Of a DNA stretch of 64,000 nucleotides, positions 52,517 through 62,348 are shown one piece after another. This DNA comes from Giardia intestinalis (Eukaryota): NCBI GenBank assembly GCA_000002435.2, contig CM018791.1. One strand, written 5' to 3'. A model generated the notes under the pieces. The model saw only the letters and a list, made by a program, of their open reading frames with translations. It was not told the origin of the DNA and did no database searches. Each line of letters begins with the position of its first letter. Positions within the stretch are counted from its first letter, which is position 1. The position numbers and the translations under genes are program-made.

Positions 52517-54250
52517 ATGTCTGCGAGCGTGGGCGCAGGGGTTGGAACGCTTGGAAGGTCTCTCGGCGTCCGCTTGCCTGGCTCCAAGGAATCGCGCAAT
52601 GAACTTGCTCTTTCCGCTGGTCCAGCTAAATCTAGTGAACGACCCCTGGGTCTCGGACCTTCTGTGATTAGTCGCACCTCTCAGTATAAGAACCTTGAAG
52701 AGCAGTACAACATCTTGAAGAGCAAGTACATGTCTAACGTGGATCGAGTTGCCGAAACTGTGCAGCTCAGCAACGAGTACAAGCAACTTGAGAAGAAGTA
52801 TGCTAATGCAACACGATCAGCCAGTGAGCTTGCGGCTGAAAACGAAGCTTTACGCGGAGAACTTTCGGAAACAAAGGGAGCTCTTGATACGTACAAGGAG
52901 AAGCTGGCGGAAATTTCTGTGCAACCTCCGCCAATTCTGGACACTGACTTGTCCACTAATCACTTATATTCGGACCATAATTTGGCTACTTCTGCCTCGA
53001 TGTCTGCTGCTGCCAATGTCATACCCCTTGCTGCGCCCTCTTATGTAAGCCAGGAGGAGTACAACGAGATGCTCAAGTCCCGAACATCTCCCGCGTCTGT
53101 GGTTCCATCTGTCCCGTTTGAGGCCTCTAATGCATCCGTGGATAGCACAGCGCAAGTCTGCGAAGCACTTGATAGCCTTCAAAAGGACAACATTGAGCTT
53201 AGAACAGATATTAAGGAAACCCTCCTAGAGGTCACGGGAAACCTCCAGACAACCATGGTTGACTTCAGAGATCTTCGGTCGAAGTGCGAGGACATGCGTG
53301 TAGTTTTGAATCAGCGTGAATTGCATCTTCGGGATTTGGTGCACACCTTGGAAGATAGGGACAAAGAAATATCAAGGCTTCAGCGTGCTATAGAGGCTGC
53401 AGAAAAGCACCGAACGCACCGCGAAGAGGAAATACAACGCTTCACTACTGAGTGCGAAGAGGTGGCTAAACACAATGAAGAAGTGATGAAGGAGAAAACA
53501 GCGTTACTTTCAAAGCTCAAAGGTGATAATATTGACCTTAAGGCGGAACTGCATATTAAAGCAGCTGAGCTGACTGAGCTCAAAGATAAGTTAGTAGATG
53601 CACAAAAGCAGTTAAGCTCTCATGCTAGCGAGAACGCGTCGCTTCTTGCCAGGCTTGGCACAGTAAAAAACAATGCAGAACGCCTCCTATTGCAACGAGA
53701 TGAAGACGTTGAAAGACTGACAAATGAGTTAACTAAGCTCAAAGAGGAACATACACAGCACATTGAGCAAAAGGACGAAGTGATCTCGCGACTGACAGGC
53801 GAATGTGAACGACTGAAGGTCGAGCTTGCACATTTAGCAGCAGAAAAAGACACGGAACTAAGTCGGGTCAGCGCTGATTTAGCAACTCTGCAGCAAACAT
53901 TTACCCAATCAACACGAAAGAAAAACGAAGAGGCCACAAAGCTAGCTCAGGATATCGTTGAAAATAAGCTGGAAGCTGCACAAGCGCTTGAAGAAAGAAA
54001 CAAAATAATTACACAGTTGAATGCTCGCATTACAGAATTAGAACTAGAACTAAAACAACGTCCGCTGGCCAGGGAATATACCACAGTTGATATGACAATA
54101 ACACAAAAACAGCGCCCACTGTCTGCAATCGATTCTAGAAAGACACACGAGGATGAGGCAAATTCTATACGGTTCTCAAAGTCTGTGGCAGGATCTTCAT
54201 CAAATAAGCTTGTTGTTCCCATCGAATATTTGGTCATCTCTAAGCAGTAA
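52517..54250 (+). CDS. Coiled-coil protein (577 aa)
   Basis: ATG at 52517 after aaagatc. The N-terminal 60 aa are Gly/Ser-rich and the remainder is heptad-repeat rich. Confidence 0.75.
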   Translation: MSASVGAGVGTLGRSLGVRLPGSKESRNELALSAGPAKSSERPLGLGPSVISRTSQYKNLEEQYNILKSKYMSNVDRVAETVQLSNEYKQLEKKYANATRSASELAAENEALRGELSETKGALDTYKEKLAEISVQPPPILDTDLSTNHLYSDHNLATSASMSAAANVIPLAAPSYVSQEEYNEMLKSRTSPASVVPSVPFEASNASVDSTAQVCEALDSLQKDNIELRTDIKETLLEVTGNLQTTMVDFRDLRSKCEDMRVVLNQRELHLRDLVHTLEDRDKEISRLQRAIEAAEKHRTHREEEIQRFTTECEEVAKHNEEVMKEKTALLSKLKGDNIDLKAELHIKAAELTELKDKLVDAQKQLSSHASENASLLARLGTVKNNAERLLLQRDEDVERLTNELTKLKEEHTQHIEQKDEVISRLTGECERLKVELAHLAAEKDTELSRVSADLATLQQTFTQSTRKKNEEATKLAQDIVENKLEAAQALEERNKIITQLNARITELELELKQRPLAREYTTVDMTITQKQRPLSAIDSRKTHEDEANSIRFSKSVAGSSSNKLVVPIEYLVISKQ

Positions 54251-56528
54251 CGGAATGTATTTTGGTAATTGGCTTTGTGTTTCTATTGCTTAGTAGGATT
54301 TCTATACTCTTTTACATTCCTGCAACGCTTGCGAAAGCATAATAATCACATATAATAAGCTTAATATATTTTTATTGGTCAAACCGTCCTCAGTACTTAA
54401 TACTAGAAATGTGGACGCATTAATGGATATGTATTGTGAGTAAACGTGCTTATTTTAATGAGTATCATTTTAACCATTGATGATTAGAATCGTTGGCTAC
54501 ACTTATAGAATATGCTATTACATACAAAAGATATGCATAGGGCACTGGCCAATTAATAGTTCTCTTCTACTGCGCTAGTTTGGCGTCTGTTGTGATCTTG
54601 TGTCCTGTCTCGTCATCAATAAACTTTTCTGTTATGGATAGCATCATCGATGGCTGGTCATTCGATAGCTACAGTTGCGACAATCATCGTCAGTTATTCT
54701 TGCTGGCGGAGACAGGCCTCAGGAAGATACTTGTTCGGAGATCCCGTTTGCGTCCACTACGGCGCCTATCCTGAGAAGACAATGCTAACTTGCGTAAGGT
54801 ACTTCCACTGCTCATTCCCGCTGGTCCAGATAAACGCCTTGCATACTTCGGATTGCCCTCTGCTGGCAACAGAGCAGCCACTGCCCTTTGTGTTTCCTTC
54901 AGACACATGCCCATCTATGACGGCGCTTCTTGTCTCTTCTCTGGTGAGGCATAACCGCACCAATCCAGACACCTTGCTCTCAGCACGCATCTCGTATCCA
55001 GCAGAAGCCAGGTGTTCGTCAGCCATATCCCGTGAGCATCAGCACTGTGCCACTATGTTACTTCCTGTCCTTCTTGAGGGGCGTGCTCTAATCATCCCAG
55101 TGTCTCTATGATAGGAGAGCTGTGGATCCGGAGGCTGCTGTGGCTTTCTGGCCCTCTCTGCTGTCCAGGAGAATCCAAACTCGCCCTTCGGGAGTCGGTC
55201 CCCTAACCTTCTGTTCTCTCGGGGAAGTGGTCCTTGGATAGTGCTACCCAGAGGGCTCCCGAAGCCTCACTATATGGGTGCTGCTTCTAAGAACTCCTGG
55301 AGTATCCTTAGAGAGTCTCCCAGTGGCGCAAATCCTACCCATTGTCAGCGGAGGTCTCGGCTCTCAAGGACATCTCAGGGACAGCACGCCGGTGCCACTT
55401 CCTGACGGGGGCCAGGCGGGGGCCGCTCACCCTTGTGGATCCATCATTGGCATCGAGAGCACTAAGCCTGCCATCTTCGCTGGAGGTGTCAGCAGACGGT
55501 ACTCCGCATCCACCTATGGAAGGGCTGAGTCGTGTGCTGTCGTCATAATATTCCATATTAATGCAGATAAATCTCCCGGTGGCACTTGGGGATACCCAGC
55601 ACAGCACGCTAATATGTTGCTTGCTCGAGCTATCGCTCAGATCTGCGATCCCCGTGGTCTGGGCCAGGTGCCTTGAATGGCCTCCAGCCCTAGTAGGAGC
55701 ACAGGTCGGTGCTCCTTGTTCCAAACAAGCATTCCGTCTATTGTGCCCAGCCCTGAAAGACTCGCTCCTTCGCAGGTGCCCGAGCCAAGCGCTGTCTGCC
55801 GCCCAGGAGGCGTGCTGGCATTCAACAGAGAGGCTTGCAGATACCACAGACCTCGTTGGTAAAGCGCCTGGGCCCCTGCCCTGGGCACGAGTAAGAAGCC
55901 CCAGCAGTACTTCGCTGCGGACTATGACACGGCTCCTGTGTGCACCAGGCGATGCACAGCAGCCACGAGTGTGCAGTCCTCTGCGCCTGCCCACCGATGA
56001 CGCAGCTGGGGCCTGTGGGGCAGCAGGGCCGAGACATACATATGGGAGGCGCCAACGGGCATTGGGCTATTGGCCGTCAAATGGTGGGTATGACTTGAGA
56101 GGTGGCTCGCGGCAAGTAGTTTACTCGACCGCAGCAGACAGGATCGCCTTTGGCCTAAAACCGCCATGTGTCGGTAGATGCACCTGTGTCTTCCACCATT
56201 GTTCTGTGTGCTATTATTATATTCTGGCTTCTCTAGATTTAGCAGAGGCATCTAACAAGGAATTCACAACTAGAGGCTGGCCCAACAGCCAGAGAGGCGT
56301 CTATTGGGCTGTACACCCATGCACCGGATTGTCTCGAAGGCGTCGTTCCCTCTCTAATTACGTGCCCTGTCCCCGGTCCGTACCAGCGAAAGTCTTACTG
56401 AGACACCCACTGTCCAGGATACTGACCAGACCACCAGGCAGCGATTGGCCGGAATAAGGGAGAGCCGCTCTCCTTGGCATACTCTACTATGTGCGTGCAA
56501 GAATGGATGGACCATAAAGTGAGGCCAC

Positions 56529-58949
56529 TCAGTTTTTCTTTCGGAAGACGAAAAACCAAACCAGCACACCCGCCACACCGCCGACGACGAGGACCACGCT
56601 GATGGCGATGCCAGAGATGGCACTAGACGAGAGGGCGGACTTTTTGGAGGTGCTGTCGTACTCCAGACATACGGGTGTGGCTGCACCCTCTGGAACCACG
56701 CAGAGGCTGCACTTGGAGATCGCCTTGTGACACGCCTTGCACGTGCTCTCGGAGAAGTAGTACCCGGCCAGGCAGTCAAAGCATACCTCCCCATGGGGGC
56801 AGGTGGCGCAGCCCTTGGAGCACGCCTTGCACGCCCCCTTCTCCAGGTAGAACCCGCTGTTGCAGGCGTTGCAGACCCCACTGCTACACATTGCGCAGTT
56901 CGTCGGGCATGTAAGGAGCGTTCCGTTGTACGTTATCCCGTACCCGGTCACGGTGCTGTCACACCAGCCGTTACTCTCCTTCGTGCAGACAGTCTTCCCG
57001 GGGAGGAGCGTGGAGGTGTAGCACCCCCCGTTGAGGCTGAAGGAGTTTGAGCTGCAAGCAGCACATCTACCGGCAGCGACATTCGCGCACGCGATGCCAG
57101 CCGCCCGCAAGCTGGAGAAGGTGCACGCCCCGTTGTTGGGGTACTCCGTGCTCTTGGCGCAGCGCGAGCAGTAGCTGGTCCCGCCCACCGTGAGCCCGCA
57201 CTCTGCACAGCTGCTGTCCTGCACGCACTGCGGGACGCACGATCCCTTGGCACCGTCGCTGTACTGCAGCCGCTTCCTGGCAGGGCAGGAGGTGCAGTCA
57301 CCGGACGCCGGTCCGCTGCACGTGGCACACTCAGAGCTGCACGGCTTGCATCCTCCCGAGCCCTCGACGTAGAACCCGTCCCTGCAGGTCTTGCACTTGG
57401 ATTCCGACTCGCAGACTGCGCAGTTGCCGAGCGTGCACGCCACGCACCTCGAGACGCCCCCCACGGTGGCCTTGTAGTACCCGGCGGAGCCCAGGCAGTC
57501 CTTCACGCACAGACCGTGGGGGTCGAGGCTGTTGCCACCGGCACACTTTGTGCATACGTTTCTGTCCTCGCACGTGTCGCAGTTGGGGTCCTTGCACTTG
57601 GTCGCCACGCACTGACTGCCGGAGAGTGTGTAGCCATACTTGCACTTCTTACAGCTCGACTCGTCACACTCAGCGCAGTTCTCCACCGCGCACCCGACGC
57701 ACTTCCCGTCCTTCAGATATGACCCGTCATCGCACGCGCAGCTGTGGACCGAGGATGAGGACCCCTTTATGCCCTTCTGCCCCTTGGGACAGCTGGCCAG
57801 GCAGCTCCTCTTATCCAGGCTCAGGTAGAGGTCGCGGCACTCCAGACACTGAAGACTACTGTCCTTCATCTCACACCTTTGGCATCCCTCTATTCCCCCG
57901 TTGGCTGAGTCCCCGCAGCGCCAGCATCCGTTGTTCTTGGTGAACACTTCATTGATTGAACTGTTGCATGCAGTACACACATTGTTTTGCACTGTCTGAC
58001 AAATCTGAGACCCTACTTGACCTGGAGCATAACTAAATAAGTAGCATCCACCATAAAACAAGAAGTATTGCCTGTTGCTATCATTCTTACAAGATGTGCA
58101 TTTTCCCGTTTCAGAATCTTTCGTACAAACATTATCAAATCCGCTAATTGACCCACAGAGGCCATTCTGAGGCACTTCTGATGAATTGGCACATTGTGTG
58201 CACAACGATTGTCCCTGTATATCTATAGTATTTCTTGGTAAACAGATACTGTTGCCAATTACACTATCTGTGGTATAACACCCAAACTGACTCCAGACGT
58301 AACCCCTAGGACAAAAGTAACAATAGCCGAGCTCGAGTCCCTTAACAGACCTACATCGAAAATCAAAAGGGCACATAAATCGTTCTGAGCATTCGCTACA
58401 GCTGGGTATAGTGTTCCCTGGCAACCTATGTTGGTTACAGTACTGACACCTATATACACCACTACTCCCGCCAAAGCCTACTATATCTCCGCAGTAGATA
58501 CAGCGTTCAGGAGAGGTCGCATTAGGGTTGGTAAAAGTTATTGGAGTATAGTACGTACTACCCTTTCCGCACTCTTGACAAATCCCATTTTCTGCACGAT
58601 CGCAAATACTTGCTTTCCATCTGCCAGACAATTCATAGCAGCCACCGTAAAATAAGAAGTAACCATTTTTACATCCTGTGCACCATCCACCTTTCGGCGA
58701 TTTAACACAACCGGCTTTATTAACTTTTTCGTCTGTAGTAGCAACACATGTGCCGTTGATGGGAACATAATCCTGGCTACACTCTGTGCAAAAAAAAGCA
58801 CCTAAGTCCACTAGGCATCTATCCTGAAGACACTGTGAGATCTTGCCTTCACAAGAATACCCAAAGCCATTGTAGTATACAAACGTTTCCTCAGAGAAAG
58901 ACCCTGCCAGAAAACAAGTCAGAATCACGATCAGCGAAGCCAAAGTCAT
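56529..58949 (-). CDS. High-cysteine membrane protein (HCMP; VSP-like Cys-rich ectodomain, not a VSP)
   Basis: Signal peptide MTLASLIVILTCFLAGSFS. It has dozens of CxxC/CxC motifs and GYY/GYF (GGCY-like) repeats. The C-terminal TM plus RKKN tail differs from the VSP CRGKA tail. ATG at 58949. Confidence 0.85.
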   Translation of the reverse strand: MTLASLIVILTCFLAGSFSEETFVYYNGFGYSCEGKISQCLQDRCLVDLGAFFCTECSQDYVPINGTCVATTDEKVNKAGCVKSPKGGWCTGCKNGYFLFYGGCYELSGRWKASICDRAENGICQECGKGSTYYTPITFTNPNATSPERCIYCGDIVGFGGSSGVYRCQYCNQHRLPGNTIPSCSECSERFMCPFDFRCRSVKGLELGYCYFCPRGYVWSQFGCYTTDSVIGNSICLPRNTIDIQGQSLCTQCANSSEVPQNGLCGSISGFDNVCTKDSETGKCTSCKNDSNRQYFLFYGGCYLFSYAPGQVGSQICQTVQNNVCTACNSSINEVFTKNNGCWRCGDSANGGIEGCQRCEMKDSSLQCLECRDLYLSLDKRSCLASCPKGQKGIKGSSSSVHSCACDDGSYLKDGKCVGCAVENCAECDESSCKKCKYGYTLSGSQCVATKCKDPNCDTCEDRNVCTKCAGGNSLDPHGLCVKDCLGSAGYYKATVGGVSRCVACTLGNCAVCESESKCKTCRDGFYVEGSGGCKPCSSECATCSGPASGDCTSCPARKRLQYSDGAKGSCVPQCVQDSSCAECGLTVGGTSYCSRCAKSTEYPNNGACTFSSLRAAGIACANVAAGRCAACSSNSFSLNGGCYTSTLLPGKTVCTKESNGWCDSTVTGYGITYNGTLLTCPTNCAMCSSGVCNACNSGFYLEKGACKACSKGCATCPHGEVCFDCLAGYYFSESTCKACHKAISKCSLCVVPEGAATPVCLEYDSTSKKSALSSSAISGIAISVVLVVGGVAGVLVWFFVFRKKN

Positions 58950-60529
58950 GAAGCTATTATTCTTTATTGGATACCTATGAAAGTTACACGCACTAATCCG
59001 AGTCAGCCACTGAAAGCCTTGGCTTAGAATTACAACTGTCAGAGTAATACCCCTTGTACTTCTTACAGACAGACTACAGCCGGCAGACCCATAGAAGGGC
59101 CCGCTCTACTTATACTAGTCATCGACTCACACGGCGACCTGAGCAGCCTGTAATCTGGCTCTGCAATGAAACAGTTAGGCGATCTGTTTGTCCCCACTCT
59201 CAAGCGGAATTGCCTAATTCAAAATTACTAACATACGCTTCAAAGTTTCGCAGGACTTACAGTACAGAAAACTCATTGAGAACCTATTCCGAGCAAACAC
59301 GTCCGGTACACAACCACCTCGCAAAGGACTCTCTGCTGTCAAGGAGATCCTCTCGAGGTCTATGAGTGGGGTGACTGTAAGCGAGCTTCTTGAAGAATGG
59401 CCGTTTTCAGGCGCCTGTCCATCCCCTTACCCCGATGTTCCGGGAACCAGCATCAGTCATATCTTCGTTGAGCAAGGGCACTGTGGAGGGGACTCTGCAG
59501 GGCCTAACGAGCGTTCGAAGGTGCAGCAGAACAACGACGAGACACGGTATGCCGTCGCATAGGCACTAAGATCTTGCTGACCTGTGCACTGAAGGATGCA
59601 GGCCATCCGAGTCCTTCTCTGTATGCAATCGTAGCCTGCTGCTTTCGTCGGTGTTTGTCATCCACGAGGGCCCTTATTACCCGAAGCCCTAGAGCCCTGA
59701 GGTCGTACTGCGGCAAGCATCTGCTCTACAGGTGCTGACGTACAGGCCACTTTACTTTATTACTGGCAGTCGGAGAATACTTCGACGTGGTTTGTTCAGA
59801 GACGCCAGGAGTACAGCCAAGTACCTTGCCGATAAGCACAACATCCAGCCCCAGAAGAACATCTAGTCCTCCTGACGCACGATGCGGCCATGTTTGTCTT
59901 CTGCTGGTACCGGGCCCAAACGGACAGCCTGCTTACTGAAGAAGAACGTATGCAGTTAGACACCTTTGAAGGCCTGGCCTGCCTTAGCAACCCAATTCAC
60001 TGCAGAGTGCCCTTTGCTGCTCCCCGCCCCCAATGCACGGAGATTTAATCAAGCGTGATGATTCATTGCACCCGCCGGCCACGCCCAGCCCTGCCCGCGG
60101 GCGTCTCACTCAAGTCCCGGCCGTCCTGGTGGGCGCGGGTCTCCGCAACCCTTTTCAACAAAGCTCCCACCTGTCGCGGCGGCGGCTGTCGGCCTCTGGC
60201 TCACCGGCTGGGGCCGCCCCTCCGCGAGGAGCTCTGCGACGTCCCTGTTCCCCGCCTGCGCAGCGAGCAGCAGGGCCCTGCGGCCGTCGGCGCCCTCCCT
60301 CTCGTGCTCTGCGGGGCGGGGATCCGGGCCACCCTGGGGCGGTTCCCGTGGGCGGCGTGCATGAGGCCGTCACCCCCTACTCGTCACGTTTGCTGATGCC
60401 AATCCCTCTTCAAGTAGTGTCCGGACGGTCTCTGTGTTGTTTGTGTGCAGCGCGCATCAGCCTGAGGAAGACTGTGGGTACCGGCCGCTCCATCCTGTCA
60501 CTAAGCTGCATGACCTTGGCCTCTAGCCT

Positions 60530-61684
60530 TCACGTGGCCAGATGCCCTTTACCCTGATCCTCGAGAGTGCCCTTAAGAGAGGCAGTCTCAGCAGACCTGG
60601 CGTCGAGGGCCGCCTCAAGAGTAGTAATCCTGTCCAGCTTGGTCTTGGCATCCTCCTCCAGAAGTGTAATCCTGGCGTTAGCACTGTTCAGAGTAGTCTC
60701 CAAGGCGCCGCACTTGTACCTCAGCATCACGCACTGACCCCCCAGCTCACTAACTGGGATGTCGAATGTAGCGAGCGTCTCGTGCAGCTCCCTGGCCGTC
60801 GGCCTCCTCTCTGGCTCCAGCACGAATATCCTCTCCAGAACATTCTGCATGAAGCCATCAGTGACATCGCTCAGGTCCGGCCTCCACCCATCGACGAAGA
60901 CCTCTGCTGGGACTTTACCTTCTAGGAAGTCCGGTTTCCTTAGAGTAGTAAGCTCGTAGAGGATGACCCCGAGGCTCCACACGTCGGAGGCGGGGCTGGC
61001 CTCGTTGCGAAGGAGCACCTCGGGGGCCACGTATGCCATTATTCCCATGAGAGTGCTCCCACTCCACAGGGCGTCCTTGCAGAGGCCGAAGTCGGCGATG
61101 ATGAAGCGCTCTCCGTCTGCGCTGACGAGGATGCTGGCAGGCCTGAGGTCGCGGTGGACGAGCCCCCTAGTACCTATCCCACTGAGGCCGTAGAGATAGG
61201 CGAGGGCGGCAGCGACCTGCCTCAGGACGGAGAGGATCACAGCGATAGGGATGAGAGTCTTCCTTCGTTTGTGCTCGGTGAGGAGGCGCTCGAGGGTCTT
61301 GTCGTGCCGGTCTATGACGACATAGATGAGACCTTCGTCCTCGACTACTTGGTGGTGCCTGAGGACCCCCGGATGGGAGAGGTCGAGAAGGGCGGTCAGC
61401 TCTAGTCTGATGGCATCTGCACTGTTCTTATCTAAGCCGTCGAGGAGGATCTCCTTCAGGGCAAGGCTCGGATATCCCTTGAGGGAGTAGACTACACCTG
61501 CGACGCTTTCATTAGGCACGCTATCCAGTCGCTCGTGGAGTTCCCTGAGGGCGAAGTGCAGGGGGCTGGACGCGCGACTGCCACCGCCGCCCACGAATTC
61601 CGTTTTTGGACGCCCGGGCGATCGATCGGACGGCCCGCGGAGAGGCCGCTCCTGCCGGCCCTGTGGCAGCGAGCGATGCCGCAC
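60530..61684 (-). CDS. NEK-like protein kinase with C-terminal coiled coil, with no in-frame ATG before the kinase C-lobe (possible pseudogene or non-AUG start)
   Basis: Kinase motifs are present (VGGGGS, LALKEI, HRDLRPASIL, ADFGLCK, YVAPE). The ORF opens with a GTG 19 codons after an upstream in-frame TAA. The first in-frame ATG is at residue approx 215 (STLMGIMAY). Confidence 0.5.
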   Translation of the reverse strand: MRHRSLPQGRQERPLRGPSDRSPGRPKTEFVGGGGSRASSPLHFALRELHERLDSVPNESVAGVVYSLKGYPSLALKEILLDGLDKNSADAIRLELTALLDLSHPGVLRHHQVVEDEGLIYVVIDRHDKTLERLLTEHKRRKTLIPIAVILSVLRQVAAALAYLYGLSGIGTRGLVHRDLRPASILVSADGERFIIADFGLCKDALWSGSTLMGIMAYVAPEVLLRNEASPASDVWSLGVILYELTTLRKPDFLEGKVPAEVFVDGWRPDLSDVTDGFMQNVLERIFVLEPERRPTARELHETLATFDIPVSELGGQCVMLRYKCGALETTLNSANARITLLEEDAKTKLDRITTLEAALDARSAETASLKGTLEDQGKGHLAT

Positions 61685-61805
61685 CTGTCCACCCGTAGGG
61701 CCGAGGTCAGTAAACGGCCGGTGGCTGCCTGCACCAAATATTTACTGGGCTGACAGGACAGCACTGCTTTTAAAACTATAACAAGTTTCAAAATAAGAAA
61801 CCTTG

Positions 61806-62348
61806 ATGAAGGTTGTGATTCAGAGGGTTCACTCTGGTTCTGTCACTATTAATAAGGGCAAAGATACAGAGTATGTTAGCGGAAGCATTGGAAGGGGGTA
61901 CGTAGTTCTAGTTGGAATCAGTCGCGAGGATGTCATTGAAGACATGCACTATATAATAGGAAAGCTCCTAGCCGCAAGACTTTTCCCAGACGAAACTGGA
62001 AAGGAGTGGGCGCGGAACATTATTGAAGTAGAGGGAGAGATTTTGCTTGTTTCTCAGTTTACTCTATATGGATTTCTAAACGGAAACAAACCAGACTTCC
62101 ACGAGGCAATGAAGAGTGAAGAAGCTGGCCCGCTGTTTGACAAGTTTGTTCAGCATGTGAAAGAGAAGTATGTTTCAGATCGCGTGCACACAGGGGTCTT
62201 TGGGGGTGACATGGTCGTATCAATTGAAAACGATGGTCCTACTACGTTAACAATAGATAGCCGTGTGAGTGCATACGCGAAAGATGCCGCTGGGATGGCT
62301 AAAATAGGGGGGAACAAAACGTGGAAGAAATACAACCCCGATAAATAA
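61806..62348 (+). CDS. DTD: D-aminoacyl-tRNA deacylase (D-Tyr-tRNA(Tyr) deacylase, DTD) with C-terminal extension
   Basis: MKVVIQRV...GRGYVVLVGI...LVSQFTLYG...GVFGGDMVVSIENDGPTTL matches the DTD signature motifs SQFTL and NDGP(V/T)T. The track start at 61803 is a TTG and the ATG is at 61806. Confidence 0.85.
   Translation: MKVVIQRVHSGSVTINKGKDTEYVSGSIGRGYVVLVGISREDVIEDMHYIIGKLLAARLFPDETGKEWARNIIEVEGEILLVSQFTLYGFLNGNKPDFHEAMKSEEAGPLFDKFVQHVKEKYVSDRVHTGVFGGDMVVSIENDGPTTLTIDSRVSAYAKDAAGMAKIGGNKTWKKYNPDK

Follow-up and report, generated by a model that had tools for sequence, protein, structure and literature searches.

A Nek-GL4 kinase locus of Giardia intestinalis with a mutated start codon, a broken ankyrin-repeat tail and mosaic divergence between strains

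The 64,000-nt stretch of DNA that we analyzed (the window) carries on its minus strand a long kinase-like reading frame in which an ATG appears only late. We conclude that this locus is very probably a non-functional pseudogene of Nek-GL4, a fast-turnover, Giardia-specific family with a kinase domain, a coiled coil and “TALM” ankyrin repeats. Presumably no protein is made from it. The locus is already known. It was cataloged as G092 / GL50803_98050 / GK122, Nek-GL4, “Pseudogene” by Manning et al. 2011 (Genome Biol 12:R66, Additional file 1; PMC3218828). The conceptual translation of GK122 given there begins IFGAGSHRPFTDLGPTGGQVRHRS (PMC3218828), and the whole published string of 399 aa recurs without a mismatch in the window translation 61741..60533. 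The same work lists 30 kinase pseudogenes of strain WB, 29 of them in Nek-GL4, and describes “rampant gene duplication and pseudogenization” (PMC3218828). The significance of this particular locus is therefore low, as it is one of 29 Nek-GL4 pseudogenes already cataloged in the WB kinome. What can be offered is an explanation of an odd-looking open reading frame (ORF): its start has mutated to GTG, the old 5' flank appears to be open by chance, and the tail has decayed.

An exact-sequence look-up with three ORFs near the dead Nek identified the source of the window as a 1,973,847-bp chromosome of Giardia intestinalis WB (ATCC 50803). The surroundings of the locus are as follows.

61806-62348, plus strand: D-tyrosyl-tRNA deacylase (DTD) gene, identical to KAE8302613 / XP_001706945.
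58950..60216, minus strand: non-coding remnant that separates the dead Nek from the VSP-like gene after it, about 93% identical to the copy in strain DH.
56529-58949, minus strand: VSP-like high-cysteine membrane protein (HCMP) gene, identical to KAE8302612 / XP_001706947.
52517-54250: GL50803_0016543, identical to KAE8302611.

The Nek ORF falls inside the 2.85-kb interval between the VSP-like gene and DTD. Since KAE8302612 and KAE8302613 are consecutive, the 2020 annotation has no protein in this interval; 306 pseudo genes are listed in that annotation of WB (PMC7000408). The 2007 gene model XP_001706946.1 (“Kinase, NEK”) is confined to an ORF of 172 aa that begins at the first internal ATG. 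A Pfam scan of 58950-60200 found nothing recognizable. The dead Nek, which adjoins a VSP-like cysteine-rich gene, is situated in a region with many repeats and few genes. A GC-rich island (54600-56500, 55-61% G+C) follows downstream of the VSP-like gene. A gene check of this island yielded unconvincing ORFs only, and the 298-aa ORF at 55561-56457 is absent from the protein collection. The island may be another decayed family member. Xu et al. 2020 report that the surroundings of VSP-family genes are poor in genes (PMC7000408), and the island fits this.

The ORF as called mechanically runs from GTG to TGA on the minus strand (61684..60530, 384 codons), and the frame as a whole is open over 61741..60533 (403 codons in WB). 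The following positions matter for its 5' part.

61742..61744, minus strand: in-frame TAA that closes the frame upstream; it lies within an AGTAAAT motif, where the homology between the WB and DH copies starts.
61682..61684, minus strand: first GTG of the mechanical ORF, proposed as a possible start by the sequence-only reading that preceded this work; no paralog starts here.
61595..61741, minus strand: putative former 5' flank or promoter region of the Nek gene, 66% G+C, with an eroded A/T-rich initiator (GTCCAAAAACGGAATTC as compared with TTTTTAAAACAAAYTTC).
61592..61594, minus strand: GTG where the family has its ATG start (A-to-G transition, loss of the start codon), from DNA and protein alignments.
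61046..61048, minus strand: first in-frame ATG, located past DFG and ahead of APE in the activation loop; start of the 172-aa model XP_001706946.1.

The loss of the start codon is seen in the DNA alignment, where the GTG at 61594-61592 is aligned with the ATG of the paralogs P0002 (L008) and P0009 (L010). The window reads GTCCAAAAACGGAATTC-GTG-GGCGGCGGTGGCAGT, and the two intact paralogs read TTTTTAAAACAAAYTTC-ATG-ACYGRCAGTGGC. Just after the aligned start the window has a 21-nt in-frame deletion. Immediately upstream of the GTG an A-rich motif (AAAAC) is partly retained in comparison with the intact paralogs; such a motif precedes the start codons of Giardia (Xu et al., PMC7000408). Protein and DNA alignments place an ATG at this position in every intact paralog examined. 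The N-termini of the family read MHAASSG..., MTGSGDH... or, in an over-extended model, ...NFMAGGSNH, and the window has ...EFVGGGGSR at the same place (FVGGGGS as against FMAGGS in P0006). An intact gene would have an ATG at the family position; the window has GTG there, and the alignment contains no ATG at any nearby position of the start region. Counted from the TAA, in-frame ATGs occur at codons 232, 235, 298 and 339, and none occurs before codon 232. The codon that is now GTG at 61594-61592 was the ancestral Nek start, a few bases past the A-rich initiator, and an A-to-G transition has removed the ATG.

The in-frame TAA 19 codons upstream of GTG 61684, which the sequence-only reading had pointed out, is indeed present at 61744-61742. 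The same reading had found the 5' end, about 120 nt, to be GC-rich, and this also stands: the 150 nt at 61595-61744 have 66% G+C, as compared with 48.6% in the window and 38% in the 61-nt intergenic stretch beside DTD. In the DNA alignment, 61595..61741 is homologous to the upstream regions of intact paralogs. To judge from these alignments, the GC-rich stretch of 150 nt is old 5' flank and not ancestral protein, and its openness in the Nek frame would be due to chance.

The same alignments rule out the hexapeptide VGGGGS as a P-loop. It had been taken for the glycine-rich loop of the kinase. As the GTG is aligned with the family ATG, VGGGGS is instead the old N-terminus, equivalent to M-[TA]-G-[SG]-G in intact paralogs.

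A sequencing frameshift had been suggested as a reason for the missing start, and more generally an indel or a base error might hide a frame that contains an ATG. The region is indeed repetitive and GC-rich, and short-read contigs break inside it. Nevertheless, five independent short-read assemblies (Logan; L002, L003, L004, L006 and L007) show 0 mismatches to the 5' end of the window over spans that reach from 61363, 61400 or 61692 to 61805, with the GTG and the TAA inside them. When translated, the published sequence of 2011 (GiardiaDB release 2.3) agrees with the window. This GTG also recurs in two copies of DH, another strain with a sequencing project of its own, and the aligned start region offers no nearby ATG that an error could have obscured. 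We therefore exclude a sequencing frameshift and give an error of any such kind practically no probability.

Every Logan contig with DTD stops 114-443 nt upstream of DTD, within the dead Nek (window positions of about 61363-61700; L002-L007). Since these contigs end inside the kinase, the kinase is marked as a repeat, one that systematically breaks Illumina assemblies at this place.

The description of the frame as a NEK-like kinase is correct: it contains a Pkinase domain, and its best relatives are Giardia proteins named “Kinase, NEK”, with 64-78% identity. This identity and the exact match to GK122 place the kinase sequence in Nek-GL4. The domain and its motifs are located as follows.

60782..61468, minus strand: protein-kinase domain, Pfam PF00069, E = 3.3e-31, residues 73-301, matching profile positions 26-258 of 263.
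61487..61513, minus strand: position equivalent to the glycine-rich loop (G-loop); reads NESVAGVVY, degenerate according to the alignments.
61133..61156, minus strand: catalytic loop HRDLRPAS; as compared with HRDIKPAN of NEK7, Asp is kept, Arg stands in place of Lys and Ser in place of the Mg-binding Asn.
Other motifs, minus strand: the VAIK-type Lys in LALKEI (61465-61448), HRD from 61156, DFG (61093-61085) and APE (61027-61019).

The statement that the catalytic motifs are intact holds for HRD, DFG, APE and the Lys of LALKEI. When aligned to NEK7, the equivalents of Lys72, Asp166 and Asp184 are all present (in LALKEI, HRD and DFG). The statement fails for the G-loop, which reads NESVAG, and for the catalytic loop. 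The replacement of the Mg-binding Asn by Ser and of Lys by Arg means that the catalytic motifs are not all intact; a competent kinase would have a GxGxxG loop and Asn171. Both the Pfam and the NEK7 alignments begin after the G-loop position. The protein alignment shows that the G-loop is degenerate in much of the Nek-GL4 subfamily and that most paralogs have PAN in the catalytic loop where the window has PAS. “Intact” kinase motifs in a Giardia Nek copy should not be equated with a live gene.

The first ATG of the frame was said to follow the DFG/APE region. It does follow DFG, but it lies four codons before APE (ATG 61048, APE 61027-61019). The 2007 model implies that translation from this ATG makes only a 172-aa C-lobe fragment, which might act as a small scaffold protein. 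Such an ATG-started ORF does exist and was once annotated, and the locus has SAGE data: the row for GK122 gives values of 1.93 and 16.3 (table of Manning et al. 2011, PMC3218828), so that some transcription is possible. However, ATG 61048 has no A-rich start motif (the upstream sequence is GGGAGCACTCTC), and neither the N-lobe nor the catalytic loop nor DFG would be part of the fragment. The 2007 model has given way to the curation of Manning et al. 2011, and in the 2020 annotation this interval is free of proteins. Production of the fragment is very unlikely.

The 3' part of the locus also supports its assignment as a pseudogene. Paralog homology runs past the TGA, beyond the interval 60530-61684 to which the sequence-only reading was confined, and continues in other frames. 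A tblastn search with full-length paralogs extends the homology to about 59977, with pieces in each of the three frames. The frame path and tblastn give the following picture (stop codons within peptides are shown by asterisks).

60530..60532, minus strand: in-frame TGA within the coiled-coil region; DH reads ACG ATG AGA GCG here and has no stop.
60217..60529, minus strand: decayed linker and ankyrin-repeat tail with four frameshifts and a TAG.
To 60443, minus strand: first segment of the tail path, kinase frame, ...GHLAT*RLEAKVMQLSDRMERPVPTVFLRLMRAAH.
60444-60406, minus strand: second segment, second (+1) frame, TNNTETVRTLLEE.
60406-60365, minus strand: third segment, kinase frame, GIGISKRDE*GVTA, with the TAG at 60379-60377.
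60365-60321, minus strand: fourth segment, third frame, LMHAAHGNRPRVARI.
60312-60217, minus strand: fifth segment, second (+1) frame, AEHEREGADGRRALLLAAQAGNRDVAELLAEG.

The frame changes four times between 60444 and 60312. No single uninterrupted frame leads through the tail, which is interrupted by the TGA at 60532-60530, the TAG at 60379-60377 and these four frame changes. At least one ankyrin repeat is missing in comparison with paralogs of 640-670 aa. Pfam detects an Ank match at 60288-60223 (E = 1.6e-4), in a frame other than that of the kinase, and a Pfam scan of the three tail frames found no domain beyond this one ankyrin repeat. The C-terminus typical of Nek-GL4, a coiled coil followed by TALM-type ankyrin repeats, is present as remnants only. 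The coil is in the kinase frame, and the ankyrin remnants “LMRAAHTNNTETVR”, “TALMHAAHGN” and “ALLLAAQAGNRDVAELL” are outside it. The number of disabling lesions at the locus is at least seven. The TGA cuts the Nek in the coiled coil, and the four frameshifts and the TAG break the ankyrin tail, which has also become shorter; with the loss of the start, this is damage typical of a pseudogene.

Strain DH (an assemblage A2 isolate) allows the age of these lesions to be judged. Contig AHGT01000061.1 has DTD at one end, beside 994 nt of the dead Nek (L011); this is the position orthologous to the WB locus. A second copy (L001) lies inverted at the other end of the contig, next to an unrelated 1998-aa gene, and is annotated as “partial” P0001 with 420 codons. 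Identity between the two DH copies is about 99%. Both have GTG in place of ATG and a similarly frameshifted ankyrin tail, and the kinase frame stays open in all three copies, that of WB included. The sequence-only reading had proposed a recently inactivated pseudogene among other options. The pseudogene is upheld, but not its recency: the GTG and the frameshifted tail are shared with DH and there are at least seven lesions, which argues that the inactivation is not recent. A comparison of the start codon position between orthologs had also been recommended; it gave the same GTG in the copies of DH (A2). In P15 (assemblage E), contig ACVC01000083.1 (L012:1-257) reaches 257 nt upstream of DTD and ends there; within this stretch, the part beyond the shared intergenic sequence does not align with the WB/DH Nek leader. 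Overall, the dead Nek together with its downstream spacer appears to form a unit with at least two near-identical copies per genome.

Several observations concern this unit. In DH, the inverted repeats at the two ends of the 61-kb contig could mediate an inversion of the approximately 58 kb between them, and GK124, the WB twin of the studied copy, may be the counterpart of the second DH copy. The upstream edge of the unit has two matches to AGTRAAY, the polyadenylation signal of Giardia: AGTAAAT at 61738-61744 (minus strand) and AGTAAAC at 61709-61715 (plus strand). At the P15 locus L010 a VSP gene is immediately followed by an intact Nek, and the AGTAAAC signal of this VSP gene is in the equivalent place. 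The duplicated unit may accordingly carry a remnant VSP 3' end.

The divergence between WB and DH is strikingly uneven along the locus.

61595-61745, 5' leader: substitution divergence 5-6%.
60533-61594, kinase and coil core: 14.3%; dS 0.31, omega 0.42.
59060-60532, tail and downstream spacer: 6.6%, with 8 indel events.
Synonymous sites of the neighboring DTD: dS 0.071.

Both flanks of the core look orthologous and neutrally evolving. The core dS of 0.31, compared with 0.07 in the neighboring gene, points to conversion from other paralogs rather than to constraint at the locus. Judging by this pattern, ectopic gene conversion with other GL4 copies as donors most likely overwrote the core, which was afterwards homogenized between the two copies of each strain. 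Such overwriting of the kinase core would help to explain why a dead gene has a long open frame and “good” motifs. Without conversion, an open frame has a probability of about 0.12-0.35, as only 2.5% of point substitutions in the GC-rich frame create a stop. We considered dN/dS as a test of function and rejected it as uninformative: core dS is four times the local neutral rate, and after conversion of the core the ratio says nothing on present function. For reference, omega between intact paralogs is 0.30-0.54, and the WB/DH core has 0.42.

Some facts do speak against a pseudogene, namely the 403-codon open frame in WB, the 420-codon “partial” P0001 in DH, the presence of K/D/D, the scoring of GK124 as “Active” and a WB/DH dN/dS of 0.42 instead of about 1. 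The rival reading is a functional Nek-like kinase or pseudokinase of about 354-384 aa that has no ankyrin repeats and whose translation begins at a non-AUG (GUG) codon. In its favor, all three copies have an open frame with its K/D/D catalytic residues, the A-rich motif just upstream of GTG 61594 is partly kept, SAGE values are recorded for GK122, and the annotated GL4 proteins P0003, P0004 and P0005 are similarly truncated just ahead of the ankyrin repeats. Translation of the frame would give peptides such as SSPLHFALR and ELHERLDSVPNESVAGVVYSLK. On the other hand, a literature search found no non-AUG initiation in Giardia genes, and every intact paralog examined has ATG at this position. The product would be truncated, with a degenerate G-loop and without the catalytic Asn, and its truncation is due to a TGA specific to WB, beyond which ankyrin remnants are clearly recognizable out of frame. 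Divergence of the flanks is at the neutral rate and includes indels. The locus is a pseudogene according to expert curation and is left without a protein in the 2020 annotation. Together, these points leave a GUG-started kinase hardly probable, and we retain the pseudogene.

The preferred pseudogene can be compared with several known genes. The paralog DNA comparisons reported here used DH, P15 and ENA loci. GK124, an unnumbered WB Nek-GL4 entry, differs from the window copy in 4 of 399 residues and has the same N-terminus devoid of ATG. Unlike the window copy, it represents another locus and is scored “Active (K,D,D present)” with no pseudogene flag in Manning et al. 2011 (PMC3218828). GK103 / GL50803_38578, a WB Nek-GL4 pseudogene at yet another locus, has an identical 3' half with the same TGA (GHLAT*RLEAKVMQ) and the first frameshifted ankyrin remnant, but a different 5' half; GK103 is therefore a mosaic. 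As part of the tail (60217-60560) is common to GK103, copies of this dead tail have reached several loci. One tail fragment of 106 aa was once annotated as “Protein kinase gPK1” (XP_001704144.1) and has two EukProt IDs.

Gene conversion is thought to drive the turnover of variable gene families in Giardia, and the mosaic divergence between WB and DH is a small but concrete example of it. More tentatively, dead Nek-GL4 copies might be conversion partners of live GL4 Neks, a reservoir that is overwritten by them and maybe donates to them, as in pseudo-VSP arrays. We suggest this possibility, while thinking it rather doubtful, from the approximately 99% identity of copies within a strain, the 14% divergence of the core and 5-7% of the flanks between strains, and the identical 3' half of GK103.

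Intact full-length Nek-GL4 kinases (P0013, 671 aa; P0017, 669 aa; P0012, 638 aa) have kinase domains 64-78% identical to that of the window (78% for P0012) and the same order of coiled coil and ankyrin repeats. Unlike the window copy, they start with an ATG preceded by an A/T-rich initiator, and a single frame leads through several ankyrin repeats. The closest relative with an ATG is on P15 contig ACVC01000194.1 (L010:4001-7098), where a 422-aa kinase has a 4-nt overlap with an ankyrin protein of 610 aa that is annotated on its own. This Nek is split, either by a frameshift or by a 454 sequencing error.

Among proteins with solved structures, the best relatives are human NEK7 and NEK2 (2wqm, 2w5a; E about 4e-19), NEK7 being the best. 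The VAIK Lys, the alpha-C Glu, the HRD Asp, the DFG/DLG Asp and the APE positions align with those of the window. However, the relationship is remote, the window has no alignable G-loop, and HRDIKPAN has become HRDLRPAS with loss of the Asn. With GK122 of Manning et al. 2011 there is no difference, as the locus is the same; the present analysis adds the details of the lesions and the comparison with strain DH.
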